Positions 19,299-63,534 of a stretch of DNA of 64,000 bases are shown one piece after another (the first letter of the stretch is position 1; the number at the start of each line of letters is the position of its first letter). A model generated the notes under the pieces. It did no database searches and was not told the DNA's origin. It worked only from the letters and a program-made list of their open reading frames with translations. Source of the stretch: Escherichia coli (GTDB taxonomy: Bacteria > Pseudomonadota > Gammaproteobacteria > Enterobacterales > Enterobacteriaceae); NCBI RefSeq assembly GCF_003334355.1, contig NZ_QOWP01000008.1; one strand, given 5' to 3'. Both the position numbers and the translations under genes were made by a program.

Positions 19299-20503
<1,205 letters not shown>

Positions 20504-20531
20504 TTTACCAACACTACTACGTTTTAACTGA

Positions 20532-20806
<275 letters not shown>

Positions 20807-20850
20807 TAAAGAGCAATATCAGAACGTTAACTAAATAGAGGCATTGTGCT

Positions 20851-21321
20851 GTGAATCTTAACGCAACAATCCTCGGCCAGGCCATCGCGTTTGTCCTGTT
20901 CGTTCTGTTCTGCATGAAGTACGTATGGCCGCCATTAATGGCAGCCATCGAAAAACGTCAAAAAGAAATTGCTGACGGCCTTGCTTCCGCAGAACGAGCA
21001 CATAAGGACCTTGACCTTGCAAAGGCCAGCGCGACCGACCAGCTGAAAAAAGCGAAAGCGGAAGCCCAGGTAATCATCGAGCAGGCGAACAAACGCCGCT
21101 CGCAGATTCTGGACGAAGCGAAAGCTGAGGCAGAACAGGAACGTACTAAAATCGTGGCCCAGGCGCAGGCGGAAATTGAAGCCGAGCGTAAACGTGCCCG
21201 TGAAGAGCTGCGTAAGCAAGTTGCTATCCTGGCTGTTGCTGGCGCCGAGAAGATCATCGAACGTTCCGTGGATGAAGCTGCTAACAGCGACATCGTGGAT
21301 AAACTTGTCGCTGAACTGTAA
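20851..21321 (+). CDS. atpF: F0F1 ATP synthase subunit b
   Basis: 156 aa, GTG start; N-terminal TM helix then long charged coiled coil. Confidence 0.95.
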
Positions 21322-21335
21322 GGAGGGAGGGGCTG

Positions 21336-21869
21336 ATGTCTGAATTTATTACGGTAGCTCGCCCCTACGCCAAAGCAGCTTTTGACTTTGCCGTCGAACA
21401 CCAAAGTGTAGAACGCTGGCAGGACATGCTGGCGTTTGCCGCCGAGGTAACCAAAAACGAACAAATGGCAGAGCTTCTCTCTGGCGCGCTTGCGCCAGAA
21501 ACGCTCGCCGAGTCGTTTATCGCAGTTTGTGGTGAGCAACTGGACGAAAACGGTCAGAACCTGATTCGGGTTATGGCTGAAAATGGTCGTCTTAACGCGC
21601 TCCCGGATGTTCTGGAGCAGTTTATTCACCTGCGTGCCGTGAGTGAGGCTACCGCTGAGGTAGACGTCATTTCCGCTGCCGCACTGAGTGAACAACAGCT
21701 CGCGAAAATTTCTGCTGCGATGGAAAAACGTCTGTCACGCAAAGTTAAGCTGAATTGCAAAATCGATAAGTCTGTAATGGCAGGCGTTATCATCCGAGCG
21801 GGTGATATGGTCATTGATGGCAGCGTACGCGGTCGTCTTGAGCGCCTTGCAGACGTCTTGCAGTCTTAA
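21336..21869 (+). CDS. atpH: F0F1 ATP synthase subunit delta
   Basis: 177 aa; recognised; operon order. Confidence 0.95.
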
Positions 21870-21881
21870 GGGGACTGGAGC

Positions 21882-23423
21882 ATGCAACTGAATTCCACCG
21901 AAATCAGCGAACTGATCAAGCAGCGCATTGCTCAGTTCAATGTTGTGAGTGAAGCTCACAACGAAGGTACTATTGTTTCTGTAAGTGACGGTGTTATCCG
22001 CATTCACGGCCTGGCCGATTGTATGCAGGGTGAAATGATCTCCCTGCCGGGTAACCGTTACGCTATCGCACTGAACCTCGAGCGCGACTCTGTAGGTGCG
22101 GTTGTTATGGGTCCGTACGCTGACCTTGCCGAAGGCATGAAAGTTAAGTGTACTGGCCGTATCCTGGAAGTTCCGGTTGGCCGTGGCCTGCTGGGCCGTG
22201 TGGTTAACACTCTGGGTGCACCAATCGACGGTAAAGGTCCGCTGGATCACGACGGCTTCTCTGCTGTAGAAGCAATCGCTCCGGGCGTTATCGAACGTCA
22301 GTCTGTAGATCAGCCGGTACAGACCGGTTATAAAGCCGTTGACTCCATGATCCCAATCGGTCGTGGTCAGCGTGAATTGATCATCGGTGACCGTCAGACA
22401 GGTAAAACCGCACTGGCTATCGATGCCATCATCAACCAGCGCGATTCCGGTATCAAATGTATCTATGTCGCTATCGGCCAGAAAGCGTCCACCATTTCTA
22501 ACGTGGTACGTAAACTGGAAGAGCACGGCGCACTGGCTAACACCATCGTTGTGGTAGCAACCGCGTCTGAATCCGCTGCACTGCAATACCTGGCACCGTA
22601 TGCCGGTTGCGCAATGGGCGAATACTTCCGTGACCGCGGTGAAGATGCGCTGATCATTTACGATGACCTGTCTAAACAGGCTGTTGCTTACCGTCAGATC
22701 TCCCTGCTGCTCCGTCGTCCGCCAGGACGTGAAGCATTCCCGGGCGACGTTTTCTACCTCCACTCTCGTCTGCTGGAGCGTGCTGCACGTGTTAACGCCG
22801 AATACGTTGAAGCCTTCACCAAAGGTGAAGTGAAAGGGAAAACCGGTTCTCTGACCGCACTGCCGATTATCGAAACTCAGGCGGGTGACGTTTCTGCGTT
22901 CGTTCCGACCAACGTAATCTCCATTACCGATGGTCAGATCTTCCTGGAAACCAACCTGTTCAACGCCGGTATTCGTCCTGCGGTTAACCCGGGTATTTCC
23001 GTATCCCGTGTTGGTGGTGCAGCACAGACCAAGATCATGAAAAAACTGTCCGGTGGTATCCGTACCGCTCTGGCACAGTATCGTGAACTGGCAGCGTTCT
23101 CTCAGTTTGCATCCGACCTTGACGATGCAACACGTAAGCAGCTTGACCACGGTCAGAAAGTGACCGAACTGCTGAAACAGAAACAGTATGCGCCGATGTC
23201 CGTTGCGCAGCAGTCTCTGGTTCTGTTCGCAGCAGAACGTGGTTACCTGGCGGATGTTGAACTGTCGAAAATTGGCAGCTTCGAAGCCGCTCTGCTGGCT
23301 TACGTCGACCGTGATCACGCTCCGTTGATGCAAGAGATCAACCAGACCGGTGGCTACAACGACGAAATCGAAGGCAAGCTGAAAGGCATCCTCGATTCCT
23401 TCAAAGCAACCCAATCCTGGTAA
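21882..23423 (+). CDS. atpA: F0F1 ATP synthase subunit alpha
   Basis: 513 aa; P-loop GDRQTGKT; recognised. Confidence 0.97.
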
Positions 23424-23473
23424 CGTCTGGCGGCTTGCCTTAGGGCAGGCCGCAAGGCATTGAGGAGAAGCTC

Positions 23474-25746
<2,273 letters not shown>

Positions 25747-25766
25747 CGCCTTAATCGGAGGGTGAT

Positions 25767-26186
25767 ATGGCAATGACTTACCACCTGGACGTCGTCAGCG
25801 CAGAGCAACAAATGTTCTCTGGTCTGGTCGAGAAAATCCAGGTAACGGGTAGCGAAGGTGAACTGGGGATCTACCCTGGCCACGCACCGCTGCTCACCGC
25901 CATTAAGCCTGGTATGATTCGCATCGTGAAACAGCACGGTCACGAAGAGTTTATCTATCTGTCTGGCGGCATTCTTGAAGTGCAGCCTGGCAACGTGACC
26001 GTTCTGGCCGACACCGCAATTCGCGGCCAGGATCTCGACGAAGCGCGAGCCATGGAAGCGAAACGTAAGGCTGAAGAGCACATTAGCAGCTCTCACGGCG
26101 ACGTAGATTACGCTCAGGCGTCTGCGGAACTGGCCAAAGCGATCGCGCAGCTGCGCGTTATCGAGTTGACCAAAAAAGCGATGTAA
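25767..26186 (+). CDS. atpC: F0F1 ATP synthase subunit epsilon
   Basis: 139 aa; recognised. Confidence 0.95.
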
Positions 26187-26204
26187 CACCGGCTTGAAAA
26201 GCAC

Positions 26205-26238
26205 AAAAGCCAGTCTGGAAACAGGCTGGCTTTTTTTT
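26205..26238 (+). terminator. Rho-independent terminator of the atp operon
   Basis: GC-rich hairpin aaaagccagtctggaaacaggctggc followed by a T8 run, 20 nt after the atpC stop. Confidence 0.85.
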
Positions 26239-26536
26239 ACGCGTGATCCGTCCTGAAGAGCGTTCACATAGATCCTGCTGATATAAAACACCCCTGTTTT
26301 CCCGTTTATTCATTGATCGAAATAAGAGCAAAAACATCCACCTGACGCTTAAATGAAGGTACTGCCTTAATTTTCTGCAGACAAAAGGCGTGACGATGGT
26401 CGAAAATGGCACTTTCGTCAGCGGGGATAATCCGTTATTGAACAATTTATCCTCTGTCCATTTCACGATGAAAAAAATGTAGTTTTTTCAAGGTGAAGCG
26501 GTTTAAATTCGTTCTCAAATTACAGTCAGGACGCGT

Positions 26537-27907
26537 ATGTTGAATAATGCTATGAGCGTAGTGATCCTTGCCGCAGGCAAAGGCACGCGCATGTATTCCG
26601 ATCTTCCGAAAGTGCTGCATACCCTTGCCGGGAAAGCGATGGTTCAGCATGTCATTGATGCTGCGAATGAATTAGGCGCAGCGCACGTTCACCTGGTGTA
26701 CGGTCACGGCGGCGATCTGCTTAAACAGGCGCTGAAAGACGACAACCTTAACTGGGTGCTTCAGGCAGAGCAGCTGGGTACGGGTCATGCAATGCAGCAG
26801 GCCGCACCTTTCTTTGCCGATGATGAAGACATTTTAATGCTCTACGGCGACGTGCCGCTGATCTCTGTCGAAACACTCCAGCGCCTGCGTGATGCTAAAC
26901 CGCAGGGTGGCATTGGTCTGCTGACGGTGAAACTGGATGATCCGACCGGTTATGGACGTATCACCCGTGAAAATGGCAAAGTTACCGGCATTATTGAGCA
27001 CAAAGATGCCACCGACGAGCAGCGTCAGATTCAGGAGATCAACACCGGCATTCTGATCGCTAACGGCGCAGATATGAAACGCTGGCTGGCGAAGCTGACC
27101 AACAATAATGCTCAGGGCGAATACTACATCACCGACATTATTGCGCTGGCGTATCAGGAAGGGCGTGAAATCGTCGCCGTTCATCCGCAACGTTTAAGCG
27201 AAGTAGAAGGTGTGAATAACCGCCTGCAACTCTCCCGTCTGGAGCGCGTTTACCAGTCCGAACAGGCTGAAAAACTGCTGTTAGCAGGCGTTATGCTGCG
27301 CGATCCGGCGCGTTTTGATCTGCGCGGTACGCTTACTCACGGGCGCGATGTTGAAATTGATACTAACGTTATCATCGAGGGCAACGTGACTCTCGGTCAT
27401 CGCGTGAAAATCGGCACCGGTTGCGTGATTAAAAACAGCGTGATTGGCGATGATTGCGAAATCAGTCCGTATACCGTTGTGGAAGACGCGAATCTGGCAG
27501 CGGCCTGTACTATTGGCCCGTTTGCCCGTCTGCGTCCTGGTGCTGAGTTGCTGGAAGGTGCACACGTTGGTAACTTCGTTGAGATGAAAAAAGCGCGTCT
27601 GGGTAAAGGCTCGAAAGCCGGGCATCTGACTTACCTGGGCGATGCGGAAATTGGCGATAACGTTAACATCGGCGCGGGAACAATTACCTGCAACTACGAT
27701 GGTGCGAATAAATTTAAGACCATTATCGGCGACGATGTGTTTGTCGGTTCCGACACTCAGCTGGTGGCCCCGGTAACAGTAGGCAAAGGCGCGACCATTG
27801 CTGCGGGTACAACTGTGACGCGTAATGTCGGCGAAAATGCATTAGCTATCAGCCGTGTGCCGCAGACTCAGAAAGAAGGCTGGCGTCGTCCGGTAAAGAA
27901 AAAGTAA
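26537..27907 (+). CDS. glmU: Bifunctional GlcNAc-1-P uridyltransferase / GlcN-1-P acetyltransferase GlmU
   Basis: 456 aa; N-terminal nucleotidyltransferase motif (LAAGKGTRM) and C-terminal hexapeptide-repeat acetyltransferase domain. Confidence 0.95.
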
Positions 27908-28068
27908 TTCTGGCCGGGTAATCCGGTCATCTGGGATGAGGAGATAACATAATCTCCCTCCCACAAGCAGTAACTATAAAAATAACCCCACTCTCTACAA
28001 GGCTCGGGGCGCCCGAAAAAACGGGCATACAGGTTGACCGACAACGATATAAATCGGAATCAAAAACT

Positions 28069-29898
28069 ATGTGTGGAATTGTTGGCGCGATTGCGCAACG
28101 TGATGTAGCAGAAATCCTTCTTGAAGGTTTACGTCGTCTGGAATACCGCGGATATGACTCTGCCGGTCTGGCCGTTGTTGATGCGGAAGGTCATATGACC
28201 CGCCTGCGTCGCCTCGGTAAAGTCCAGATGCTGGCTCAGGCAGCGGAAGAACATCCTCTGCATGGCGGCACCGGTATTGCTCACACTCGCTGGGCGACCC
28301 ACGGTGAACCTTCAGAAGCTAACGCGCATCCGCATGTTTCTGAACACATTGTGGTGGTGCATAACGGCATCATCGAAAACCATGAACCGCTGCGTGAAGA
28401 GTTAAAAGCGCGTGGCTATACCTTCGTTTCTGAAACAGACACCGAAGTAATTGCCCATCTGGTGAACTGGGAGCTGAAACAAGGCGGGACTCTGCGTGAG
28501 GCTGTTCTGCGTGCTATCCCGCAGCTGCGCGGTGCGTACGGTACAGTGATCATGGACTCCTGTCACCCGGATACCCTGCTGGCGGCACGTTCTGGTAGTC
28601 CGCTGGTGATTGGCCTGGGTATGGGCGAAAACTTTATCGCTTCTGACCAGCTGGCGCTGTTGCCGGTGACCCGTCGCTTTATCTTCCTTGAAGAGGGCGA
28701 TATTGCGGAAATTACTCGCCGTTCGGTAAACATCTTCGATAAAACTGGCGCGGAAGTAAAACGTCAGGATATCGAATCCAATCTGCAATATGACGCGGGC
28801 GATAAAGGTATTTACCGTCACTACATGCAGAAAGAGATCTACGAACAGCCGAACGCGATAAAAAACACCCTTACCGGGCGCATCAGCCACGGTCAGGTTG
28901 ATTTAAGCGAGCTGGGACCGAACGCCGACGAACTGCTGTCGAAGGTTGAGCATATTCAGATCCTCGCCTGTGGTACTTCTTATAACTCCGGTATGGTTTC
29001 CCGCTACTGGTTTGAATCGCTGGCAGGTATTCCGTGCGACGTCGAAATCGCCTCTGAATTCCGCTATCGTAAATCTGCCGTGCGTCGTAACAGCCTGATG
29101 ATCACCTTGTCACAGTCTGGCGAAACCGCGGATACCCTGGCGGGCCTGCGTCTGTCGAAAGAGCTGGGTTACCTTGGTTCGCTGGCAATCTGTAACGTTC
29201 CGGGTTCTTCTCTGGTGCGCGAATCCGATCTGGCGCTGATGACCAACGCGGGTACGGAAATCGGCGTGGCATCCACTAAAGCATTCACCACTCAGTTAAC
29301 TGTGCTGTTGATGCTGGTGGCGAAGCTGTCTCGCCTGAAAGGTCTGGATGCCTCCATTGAACATGACATTGTGCATGGTCTGCAGGCGCTGCCGAGCCGT
29401 ATTGAGCAGATGCTGTCTCAGGACAAACGCATTGAAGCTCTGGCAGAAGATTTCTCTGACAAACATCACGCGCTGTTCCTGGGCCGTGGCGATCAGTACC
29501 CAATCGCGCTGGAAGGCGCATTGAAGCTGAAAGAGATCTCTTACATTCACGCTGAAGCCTACGCTGCAGGTGAACTGAAACACGGTCCGCTGGCGCTGAT
29601 TGATGCCGATATGCCGGTTATCGTCGTTGCACCGAACAACGAATTGCTGGAAAAACTAAAATCCAACATTGAAGAAGTTCGCGCGCGTGGCGGTCAGTTG
29701 TATGTCTTCGCCGATCAGGATGCGGGTTTTGTAAGTAGCGATAACATGCACATCATCGAGATGCCGCATGTGGAAGAGGTGATTGCACCAATCTTCTACA
29801 CCGTTCCGCTGCAGCTACTGGCTTATCACGTCGCGCTGATCAAAGGTACCGACGTTGACCAGCCGCGTAACCTGGCAAAATCGGTTACGGTTGAGTAA
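28069..29898 (+). CDS. glmS: Glutamine-fructose-6-phosphate aminotransferase GlmS
   Basis: 609 aa; N-terminal MCGIVG (Ntn-hydrolase catalytic Cys2) and two SIS domains. Confidence 0.97.
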
Positions 29899-29904
29899 TA
29901 AATG

Positions 29905-29934
29905 GATGCCCTGCGTAAGCGGGGCATTTTTCTT
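29905..29934 (+). terminator. Rho-independent terminator after glmS
   Basis: Hairpin gatgccctgcgtaagcggggcatc-like stem followed by tttttctt, directly after the glmS stop. Confidence 0.8.
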
Positions 29935-30105
29935 CCTGTTATGTTTTTAATCAAACATCCTGCCAACTCCATGTGACAAACCGTCATCTTCGGCTACTTT
30001 TTCTCTGTCACAGAATGAAAATTTTTCTGTCATCTCTTCGTTATTAATGTTTGTAATTGACTGAATATCAACGCTTATTTAAATCAGACTGAAGACTTTA
30101 TCTCT

Positions 30106-30147
30106 CTGTCATAAAACTGTCATATTCCTTACATATAACTGTCACCT
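30106..30147 (+). promoter_or_regulatory. Pho boxes (PhoB binding sites) of the pstS promoter
   Basis: Tandem CTGTCATA(A/T)A-type direct repeats: ctgtcataaaactgtcata ... actgtcacc, about 65-105 nt upstream of the pstS ATG; further weaker ctgtca repeats upstream (~30040-30100). Confidence 0.85.
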
Positions 30148-30193
30148 GTTTGTCCTATTTTGCTTCTCGTAGCCAACAAACAATGCTTTATGA

Positions 30194-31252
<1,059 letters not shown>

Positions 31253-31262
31253 TAAAACTCCA

Positions 31263-31298
31263 GGCCGGGTGCGGTGTTTTACGCCGCATCCGGCATTA
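31263..31298. repeat. REP (palindromic unit) element in the pstS-pstC spacer
   Basis: ggccgggtgcggtgttttacgccgcatccggca imperfect palindrome typical of E. coli REP sequences. Confidence 0.75.
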
Positions 31299-31335
31299 CA
31301 AAATGACTTTGTAAACGCGTTTAACTGAAGAGTAA

Positions 31336-33188
<1,853 letters not shown>

Positions 33189-33204
33189 TATTGCTGACAC
33201 GGTT

Positions 33205-33330
33205 TTCCCCTCACCCTAACCCTCTCCCCAGAGGGGCGAGGGGACCGACCGAGCGCCTTTTTGACTCTGTACACGGTTAACACTTTGCCGGATGCGGCGT
33301 GAACGCCTGATCCGGCCTACGGTAAGCCTG
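33205..33330. repeat. Composite extragenic repeat in the pstA-pstB spacer (C-rich palindrome plus REP)
   Basis: cccctcaccctaaccctctccccagaggggcgagggg imperfect palindrome followed by the REP-like gccggatgcggcgtgaacgcctgatccggcctac. Confidence 0.7.
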
Positions 33331-33331
33331 A

Positions 33332-34144
<813 letters not shown>

Positions 34145-34158
34145 TTCAGGAGTGCGTT

Positions 34159-34884
34159 ATGGACAGTCTCAATCTTAATAAACATATTTCCGGCCAGTTC
34201 AACGCCGAACTGGAAAGTATCCGCACGCAGGTGATGACCATGGGCGGCATGGTGGAGCAGCAGCTTTCTGATGCAATCACCGCGATGCATAACCAGGACA
34301 GCGATCTGGCGAAGCGCGTGATCGAAGGCGACAAGAACGTCAACATGATGGAAGTGGCGATCGATGAAGCCTGCGTGCGCATTATCGCCAAACGTCAGCC
34401 GACGGCGAGCGACCTGCGACTGGTTATGGTGATCAGTAAAACCATTGCCGAGCTGGAGCGTATTGGCGACGTGGCGGACAAAATCTGCCGTACTGCGCTG
34501 GAGAAATTCTCCCAGCAGCATCAGCCGTTGCTGGTAAGTCTGGAGTCGCTGGGCCGTCATACCATCCAGATGCTGCACGACGTGCTGGACGCGTTCGCGC
34601 GGATGGACATTGACGAAGCGGTACGTATTTATCGTGAAGATAAAAAAGTCGATCAGGAATACGAAGGTATTGTTCGTCAACTGATGACCTACATGATGGA
34701 AGATTCGCGTACCATTCCGAGCGTACTTACTGCGCTGTTCTGCGCGCGTTCTATCGAACGTATTGGCGACCGCTGCCAGAATATTTGTGAGTTTATCTTC
34801 TACTACGTGAAGGGGCAGGATTTCCGTCACGTCGGTGGCGATGAGCTGGATAAACTGCTGGCGGGGAAAGATAGCGACAAATAA
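34159..34884 (+). CDS. phoU: Phosphate signalling regulatory protein PhoU
   Basis: ORF-track 247 aa trimmed to [14 protein letters not shown] (241 aa); recognised. Confidence 0.93.
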
Positions 34885-35079
34885 TTCACCAGACAAATCC
34901 CAATAACTTAATTATTGGGATTTGTTATATATAACTTTATAAATTCCTAAAATTACACAAAGTTAATAACTGCGAGCATGGTCATATTTTTATCAATAGC
35001 GCATTGCTATTTTCTCTGCACGCAATTAAATTAATTTCCGAACCTGGATGTTCGTTATAAAAACCATTAATAAATGACT

Positions 35080-43060
<7,981 letters not shown>

Positions 43061-57389: not shown

Positions 57390-58793
57390 GTGTCACTTTC
57401 GCTTTGGCAGCAGTGTCTTGCCCGATTGCAGGATGAGTTACCAGCCACAGAATTCAGTATGTGGATACGCCCATTGCAGGCGGAACTGAGCGATAACACG
57501 CTGGCCCTGTACGCGCCAAACCGTTTTGTCCTCGATTGGGTACGGGACAAGTACCTTAATAATATCAATGGACTGCTAACCAGTTTCTGCGGAGCGGATG
57601 CCCCACAGCTACGTTTTGAAGTCGGCACCAAACCGGTGACGCAAACGCCACAAGCGGCAGTGACGAGCAACGTCGCGGCCCCTGCACAGGTGGCGCAAAC
57701 GCAGCCGCAACGTGCTGCGCCTTCTACGCGCTCAGGTTGGGATAACGTCCCGGCCCCGGCAGAACCGACCTATCGTTCTAACGTAAACGTCAAACACACG
57801 TTTGATAACTTCGTTGAAGGTAAATCTAACCAACTGGCGCGCGCGGCGGCTCGCCAGGTGGCGGATAACCCTGGCGGTGCCTATAACCCGTTGTTCCTTT
57901 ATGGCGGCACGGGTCTGGGTAAAACTCACCTGCTGCATGCGGTGGGTAACGGCATTATGGCGCGCAAGCCGAATGCCAAAGTGGTTTATATGCACTCCGA
58001 GCGCTTTGTTCAGGACATGGTTAAAGCCCTGCAAAACAACGCGATCGAAGAGTTTAAACGCTACTACCGTTCCGTAGATGCACTGCTGATCGACGATATT
58101 CAGTTTTTTGCTAATAAAGAACGATCTCAGGAAGAGTTTTTCCACACCTTCAACGCCCTGCTGGAAGGTAATCAACAGATCATTCTCACCTCGGATCGCT
58201 ATCCGAAAGAGATCAACGGCGTTGAGGATCGTTTGAAATCCCGCTTCGGTTGGGGACTGACTGTGGCGATCGAACCGCCAGAGCTGGAAACCCGTGTGGC
58301 GATCCTGATGAAAAAGGCCGACGAAAACGACATTCGTTTGCCGGGCGAAGTGGCGTTCTTTATCGCCAAGCGTCTACGATCTAACGTACGTGAGCTGGAA
58401 GGGGCGCTGAACCGCGTCATTGCCAATGCCAACTTTACTGGACGGGCGATCACCATCGACTTCGTGCGTGAGGCGCTGCGCGACTTGCTGGCATTGCAGG
58501 AAAAACTGGTCACCATCGACAATATTCAGAAGACGGTGGCGGAGTACTACAAGATCAAAGTCGCGGATCTCCTTTCCAAGCGTCGATCCCGCTCGGTGGC
58601 GCGTCCGCGCCAGATGGCGATGGCGCTGGCGAAAGAGCTGACTAACCACAGTCTGCCGGAGATTGGCGATGCGTTTGGTGGCCGTGACCACACGACGGTG
58701 CTTCATGCCTGCCGTAAGATCGAGCAGTTGCGTGAAGAGAGCCACGATATCAAAGAAGATTTTTCAAATTTAATCAGAACATTGTCATCGTAA
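57390..58793 (+). CDS. dnaA: Chromosomal replication initiator DnaA
   Basis: ORF-track 471 aa trimmed to the GTG start at [14 protein letters not shown] (467 aa); AAA+ Walker [12 protein letters not shown]; C-terminal DNA-binding domain. Confidence 0.95.
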
Positions 58794-63435: not shown

Positions 63436-63534
63436 GCCTGATGCGCTACGCTTATCAGGCCTACGAAAATCTTGCAATGTATTGAATTTTCATGATTTTG
63501 TAGGCCGGATAAGGCGTTCACGCCGCATCCGGCA
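63436..63534. repeat. Two REP elements (BIME-like) downstream of gyrB
   Basis: gcctgatgcgctacgcttatcaggcctac and gtaggccggataaggcgttcacgccgcatccggca, followed by a hairpin plus T-run terminator (gggcggagatcatctccgccctttttatttc, ~63551-63581). Confidence 0.8.

Follow-up and report, generated by a model that had tools for sequence, protein, structure and literature searches.

The glmU-glmS intercistronic region of an Escherichia coli strain very probably conforms to the canonical GlmZ-activated glmS leader

The product of GlmS is the first committed precursor of both peptidoglycan and lipopolysaccharide, and the GlmY/GlmZ/RapZ circuit is a textbook case of sRNA-mediated activation that has been proposed as an antibiotic-adjuvant target. 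In E. coli K-12, the major 5' end of the glmS mRNA lies directly 3' of the glmU stop codon (AAAAAGUGA/UUCU; in such strings the slash marks the 5' end or cut) and a minor 5' end, named 'b', lies 20 nt further on (CACAU/GGG) (Joanny et al., PMC1885654). Two stem-loops beside the cut may aid recognition by RNase E (reviewed in PMC4152352). The mechanism by which a hairpin hides the SD of glmS has been shown in K-12 (PMC2267818). Urban & Vogel (2008) predicted that GlmZ nucleotides 150-157 and 163-169 pair with the glmS leader (PMC2267818; the residues are also given in PMC4152352), and in their experiments the glmS double substitution C-27G/G-36C abolished activation and the GlmZ substitutions G155C/C165G restored it (PMC2267818). 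Moreover, according to Salim et al., two (ARN)3 motifs of the glmS 5' UTR bind Hfq and one of the two is essential (PMC3439879; PMC4152352). Processing of glmUS and the region of activation by GlmZ are already known, and the strain analyzed here is ordinary in this respect.

In the 64-kb stretch of DNA that was analyzed as a whole (the window), glmU and glmS lie on the same strand and are separated by a gap at 27908-28068. The first-pass annotation had placed the spacer at exactly this position and had given its length as 160 bp; the position stands, and the length is 161 nt, i.e. the published length of the E. coli glmUS intercistronic region (PMC4152352). Combining the comparisons described below, we suggest with high confidence that this spacer represents the enterobacterial glmUS control region of the canonical, GlmZ-activated type, and none of the comparisons speaks directly against this reading. 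The features of the locus are as follows (negative numbers count upstream from the glmS start codon):

26537-27907, + strand: glmU coding sequence, upstream cistron of the glmUS operon (456 aa in the list of open reading frames)
27905-27911, + strand: context of the RNase E cut at the glmU stop codon, with the cut expected from sequence between 27907 and 27908 (UAA/UUCU)
27911-27929, + strand: stem-loop 1 of the MFE fold, with stem UGGCCGG and CCGGUCA and loop GUAAU
27932-27963, + strand: stem-loop 2 of the MFE fold, GGGAUGAGGAGAU...AUCUCCCUCCC, same as in K-12
27966-27974, + strand: (ARN)3 motif AGCAGUAAC, candidate Hfq distal-face site by sequence, same as in K-12
27978-27986, + strand: (ARN)3 motif AAAAAUAAC, candidate Hfq distal-face site by sequence, same as in K-12
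27986-28009, + strand: stem-loop 3, CCCC-ACUCUCUACAAGGCUC-GGGG, 24 nt, from folding and conservation
28011-28026, + strand: stem-loop 4, GCCCG-AAAAAA-CGGGC, directly upstream of the GlmZ site, from folding and conservation
28028-28050, + strand: GlmZ pairing site, published as -41 to -19, from the predicted duplex and 100% identity to K-12
28034-28063, + strand: predicted inhibitory anti-SD hairpin, UUGACCGA...UCGG-AA-UCAA, from a local fold of -50 to +6
28069-29898, + strand: glmS coding sequence, the regulated downstream cistron (609 aa in the list of open reading frames)

Both flanking genes are assigned by equivalog models of NCBIfam, GlmU by NF006986 (941 bits, cut-off 725) and GlmS by TIGR01135 (897 bits, cut-off 418). 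Compared with K-12, glmU differs by 1.68% at the nucleotide level and by 1 amino acid, and GlmS differs at two residues, A84 (V in K-12) and C165 (R in K-12). A 20-kb stretch around the spacer is 99.9-100% identical to several E. coli strains, and all but one of 5426 complete E. coli genomes (5425) carry the spacer at an identity of at least 95%. Searches with Rfam also gave three sRNA matches elsewhere in the window. A match to the enterobacterial sRNA STnc410 (26296-26453, - strand, 188 bits) is located between atpC and glmU, where the glmU promoters are expected, and runs antisense to the glmUS operon; the other two are AsdA, an antisense RNA of the dnaA mRNA (57900-57980, - strand, 102 bits), and ES036/CssrF (63457-63499, - strand, 44.8 bits, just above the gathering score of 37.6). 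On the other side of the operon, the glmS-pstS spacer (29899-30211, 313 nt) has the same length as in K-12, so that the Tn7 attachment site attTn7, which we take to be located downstream of glmS, appears to be unoccupied.

Neither a sigma-70-like promoter nor an intrinsic-terminator-like site was seen in 27700-28300, and their absence fits co-transcription of glmU and glmS, which itself is established in the literature (PMC4152352). The missing promoter also bears on a different scheme, in which, in place of processing and a trans-acting sRNA, glmS would depend on a promoter of its own or on a cis-acting metabolite sensor within the spacer (a riboswitch or ribozyme). Such a sensor has a precedent in the GlcN6P-dependent leader ribozyme of Gram-positive bacteria (PMC4152352), and the spacer does contain several stable conserved hairpins. 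However, a ribozyme is not detectable in the E. coli spacer according to the literature (PMC4152352), and the glmS ribozyme family (RF00234) gave no match at the gathering threshold in the window and none at E-values up to 10 in 27850-28120, where the only matches to other Rfam families at E-values up to 10 were two chance-level eukaryotic ones. We regard this scheme as exceedingly improbable and favor control of glmS by processing and GlmZ.

The reference for alignment was K-12 MG1655, as all the published experiments were carried out in K-12. The first-pass annotation described the spacer as intact, and this description holds: the region contains 0 indels and 5 substitutions, at 27906, 27918, 27922, 27930 and 27931, none of which lies in the module comprising the GlmZ site and the ribosome-binding site. 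At 27906, an A replaces the G of K-12 as the middle base of the glmU stop codon (UAA vs UGA); the substitutions at 27918 and 27922 are in the loop of stem-loop 1, and those at 27930-27931 are in the linker ahead of stem-loop 2, at the minor 5' end of K-12. All 5 differences are located upstream of the GlmZ/ribosome-binding-site module, and despite them the window and K-12 give identical MFE folds. From 27932 to 28090, including the 137 nt upstream of the AUG, the two sequences are the same base for base. An intact spacer does no more than confirm that the strain is ordinary in its control of glmS. Third codon positions of glmU and glmS differ between the window and K-12 at 54 of 1067 sites (~5%), from which ~7 changes are expected in a neutral stretch of 137 nt (27932-28068); 0 are observed (Poisson P ~0.001), and 4 differences fall in the first 24 nt of the spacer. 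These counts indicate strong purifying selection on this part of the leader.

Within the species, the 52 nt from 28020 to 28071 (-49 to +3) are found exactly in 5404 of 5426 E. coli records and the 136 nt from 27936 to 28071 with 0-1 mismatch in 4664 records, while a 61-nt segment composed of the end of glmU and the first 33 nt of the spacer is found exactly, in the allele of the window, in only 571 of 5426. Among eight sampled alleles, variation is concentrated in 27906-27955 and around 28008-28018. One natural variant affects the GlmZ site itself: E. coli strain 504211, among the 18 of 5426 records counted as not exact over -49 to +3, carries C-24 to U (homologous to 28045), by which a G-C pair becomes G.U.

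The pairing of GlmZ with the glmS 5' UTR, as put forward in the first-pass annotation, agrees with our alignment to the known GlmZ site, in which no divergence breaks the complementarity: the pairing residues are those described in PMC2267818 and the sequence is the same as in K-12. In the predicted duplex, ACAGGUU (28029-28035, -40 to -34) pairs with GlmZ nt 163-169 in 7 bp and GACAACGA (28040-28047, -29 to -22) pairs with GlmZ nt 150-157 in 8 bp, and the mutationally validated G-36 (28033) and C-27 (28042) are both present in the window. The short-segment duplex with K-12 GlmZ comprises 15 pairs at -21.1 kcal/mol. This energy did not set the pairing apart from chance, given that 39 of 1000 shuffled leaders score as well against a 45-nt GlmZ segment; likewise, when every 37-nt segment of the 64 kb was scored, many outscored the real site, and several chance runs of 7-9 nt complementary to GlmZ occur within the leader and equal the site in length. 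Hybridization energy alone is therefore not site-specific, and the case for the site rests on its identity to the mutationally validated site and on its conservation. Separately, the RNAduplex prediction for full-length GlmZ against the whole leader was a meaningless duplex riddled with loops and was discarded in favor of short-segment duplexes.

The local fold of -50 to +6 reproduces the hairpin that hides the SD, as anticipated in the first-pass annotation. In this predicted hairpin, the left arm (UUGACCGA) shares bases with the GlmZ site, and the ribosome-binding site (GGA at 28056-28058) is contained in the right arm. When the leader is folded at full length, the MFE structure has other pairings than the local fold, and the anti-SD hairpin is therefore one of several competing predicted structures. 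Upstream of the hairpin, the candidate motifs AGCAGUAAC and AAAAAUAAC fit the Hfq sites (ARN-1 and ARN-2) described in PMC3439879, from which the binding of Hfq is taken.

Taken together with the published work, the features would generate the following sequence of events: (i) RNase E would cut between 27907 and 27908 to give a glmS mRNA with a 161-nt leader, (ii) the leader hairpin at 28034-28063 would mask the ribosome-binding site and leave this mRNA poorly translated and unstable, (iii) at low glucosamine-6-phosphate, full-length GlmZ would accumulate, with the decoy sRNA GlmY shielding it from RapZ/RNase E, (iv) Hfq would sit on the upstream A-rich (ARN)3 motifs and GlmZ would pair with 28029-28035 and 28040-28047, and (v) this pairing would open the hairpin and activate translation of glmS. 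For the present strain, cleavage, Hfq binding and GlcN6P-responsive, GlmZ-dependent activation in vivo are inferred from the literature.

The trans-acting partners glmZ, glmY, rapZ, hfq and rne are located outside the window; GlmZ gave no Rfam match in the 64 kb, and by synteny with K-12 glmZ is expected ~45 kb beyond the start of the window. The expectation that this strain has the same control thus rests on conservation across the species. Of 5426 complete E. coli genomes, 5425 carry a sequence at least 99% identical to K-12 GlmZ (207 nt), and every one of the 5426 has GlmY. The closest genome, PSS-12, has a full-length GlmZ match (218 bits) that adjoins hemY and has the same sequence as in K-12. 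In the same genome, a short pseudogene fragment follows glmZ at the place where K-12 has aslA (20615-21540 of the PSS-12 stretch), and PSS-12 has ~1.2 kb that the window lacks, somewhere within window positions 20000-40000. With the leader module the same as in K-12 and GlmZ and GlmY conserved throughout the species, the statement of the first-pass annotation that the same control is expected in this strain appears well supported.

The part of the region in which the strain does differ from K-12 is the one around the processing site. The RNase E context reads AAAAAGUAA/UUCU in the window vs AAAAAGUGA/UUCU in K-12, and the sequence at the minor 5' end, CACAU/GGG in K-12, reads CAUCU/GGG. The context of the major site is otherwise kept in that it is AU-rich, has one substitution adjoining the cut and is followed by two predicted stem-loops, and we infer that RNase E cleaves the UAA allele at 27907/27908. 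A UAA stop codon of glmU is found in 6 of 8 sampled E. coli alleles as well as in E. albertii, two Enterobacter, Pantoea stewartii and Photorhabdus, i.e. in all five free-living relatives sampled, with the frame read from the sequence. Given that UAA is present in all of these relatives, the UGA of K-12, in which the cut was mapped, is probably the derived allele. A 38-nt segment with UAA is found exactly in 1838 records and with one mismatch in 2995, among them the K-12 derivative MC4100. For specialists, the point here is that the RNase E site was mapped in UGA-bearing K-12, whereas UAA is found in most of the E. coli alleles sampled and in each of the related genera examined.

These differences raise the question of whether the 5' allele (the UAA stop, the loop of stem-loop 1 and the linker) alters RNase E processing or the stability of the leader, so that quantitative control differs from that in K-12 even though the GlmZ module is intact. 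In favor of such an effect, the sets of release factors that read UGA and UAA differ, and the five differences from K-12 are confined to 26 nt around the mapped cut and end 'b'; in addition, Joanny et al. raised the behavior of the ribosome at the UGA stop as a possible factor in processing (PMC1885654). On the other hand, the AU-rich context and UUCU are unchanged, the G to A change leaves a purine at the second base before the cut, the two alleles have identical predicted folds, and UAA is common and probably ancestral in lineages that have the GlmZ system. We consider a quantitative difference of this kind quite unlikely, and favor the model in which the UAA allele would be processed and activated as in K-12.

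To follow the leader beyond E. coli, a genome collection was scanned with the glmS start ATGTGTGGAATTGTTGG, which gave at least 120 loci from many phyla. Six Enterobacterales are among the matches listed, i.e. E. albertii, two Enterobacter, Pantoea stewartii, Photorhabdus and a Pantoea symbiont with a reduced genome; as ATGTGTGGAATTGTTGG is too universal and few Enterobacterales are among the matches listed, the statistics across genera are thin. Escherichia, Enterobacter and Pantoea all retain the cores of the GlmZ site, CAGG and GACAAC. At leader position -40, the A of Escherichia is replaced by U in Pantoea and Photorhabdus, and the CCUGU of E. coli GlmZ corresponds to CCUGA in the Rfam consensus of GlmZ, which hints at covariation between the leader and GlmZ. 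The anti-SD hairpin is predicted in Escherichia and in Enterobacter Bisph1 and was not seen in the MFE folds of the Enterobacter MAG and of Pantoea. The stem of stem-loop 2 is maintained with base changes in two Enterobacter sequences.

The comparison across genera also bears on the possibility that the spacer hides a small protein gene. The mechanical list of open reading frames includes two on the minus strand that overlap the spacer, at 27868-28044 (58 aa) and 27842-27964 (40 aa). Their start codons are TTG and GTG, and they have no other support; Enterobacterales relatives carry indels across the stretch that are not multiples of three, and conservation is concentrated in the blocks that form hairpins. 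A hidden gene has, in our judgment, a negligible probability, and we continue to read the spacer as a regulatory leader.

The most conserved block of the spacer across the sampled Enterobacterales, from Escherichia to Photorhabdus, is stem-loop 3, which in this respect ranks above the GlmZ site. Its sequence is the same in E. albertii, two Enterobacter and Pantoea stewartii, and its loop is 3 nt shorter in Photorhabdus; it folds as a predicted hairpin in 6 of 6 sequences, with the loop sequence conserved besides the stem. Stem-loop 4 is likewise predicted in 6 of 6 species, and its stems vary (GUCCG with CGGAC, ACCC with GGGU, CCGGC with GCCGG, and CCGG with CCGG). By RNAalifold, two pairs of stem-loop 4 are changed on both sides, in an alignment of 5 sequences only, for which the covariation term is weak (+0.37) and in which stem-loop 4 is out of register owing to indels. 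No complementarity of stem-loop 3 to GlmZ or GlmY above chance was detected. The loop of stem-loop 3 resembles what we take to be the CsrA SELEX consensus, RUACARGGAUGU, with GGC in place of GGA; neither a role for stem-loop 3 nor binding of CsrA to the glmS leader was found in the GlmZ/glmS literature searched. Tentatively, and with more doubt than confidence, we raise the possibility that stem-loop 3 and the covarying stem-loop 4 constitute a functional module of the glmS leader without an assigned role, which might be bound by a protein or ribonuclease or might act as a platform on which Hfq and GlmZ are positioned. For specialists, the leader's most conserved element is thus one without a role in the literature searched.

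Two further observations come from the same scan. In the insect symbiont Pantoea sp. Brub, which has a reduced genome, little separates glmU from glmS, and this spacer (the ~90 nt before glmS) is very rich in A and T; it is without stem-loops 3 and 4 and the cores of the GlmZ site, which suggests that the control has been lost. Outside the Enterobacterales, the loci of Vibrio (two), Shewanella and Pseudomonas have no leader elements upstream of glmS, and the coding sequence upstream of glmS in these loci is unlike the 3' end of glmU and, by eye, resembles the C-terminus of a DeoR-type regulator.

Compared with the known systems, the glmS leader of K-12 is the closest to the region described here. 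The two share the genes, the 161-nt length, the GlmZ site, the anti-SD hairpin, the (ARN)3 motifs and stem-loops 2-4, whereas K-12 differs in its UGA stop, two bases in the loop of stem-loop 1 and two bases of the linker. The Gram-positive glmS ribozyme (RF00234) shares the gene and the feedback of GlcN6P on the glmS leader (PMC4152352), but the E. coli spacer is without a ribozyme and its control is by a trans-acting sRNA. Finally, the predicted arrangement follows the logic of DsrA and rpoS, in which, as given in PMC2267818 and PMC3439879, an sRNA, together with Hfq on upstream (ARN)x motifs, base-pairs with the left arm of a leader hairpin in which the ribosome-binding site is occluded; in contrast to that system, the sRNA and mRNA are others and without sequence relationship to DsrA and rpoS, and glmS forms the downstream cistron of an operon transcript that undergoes processing.
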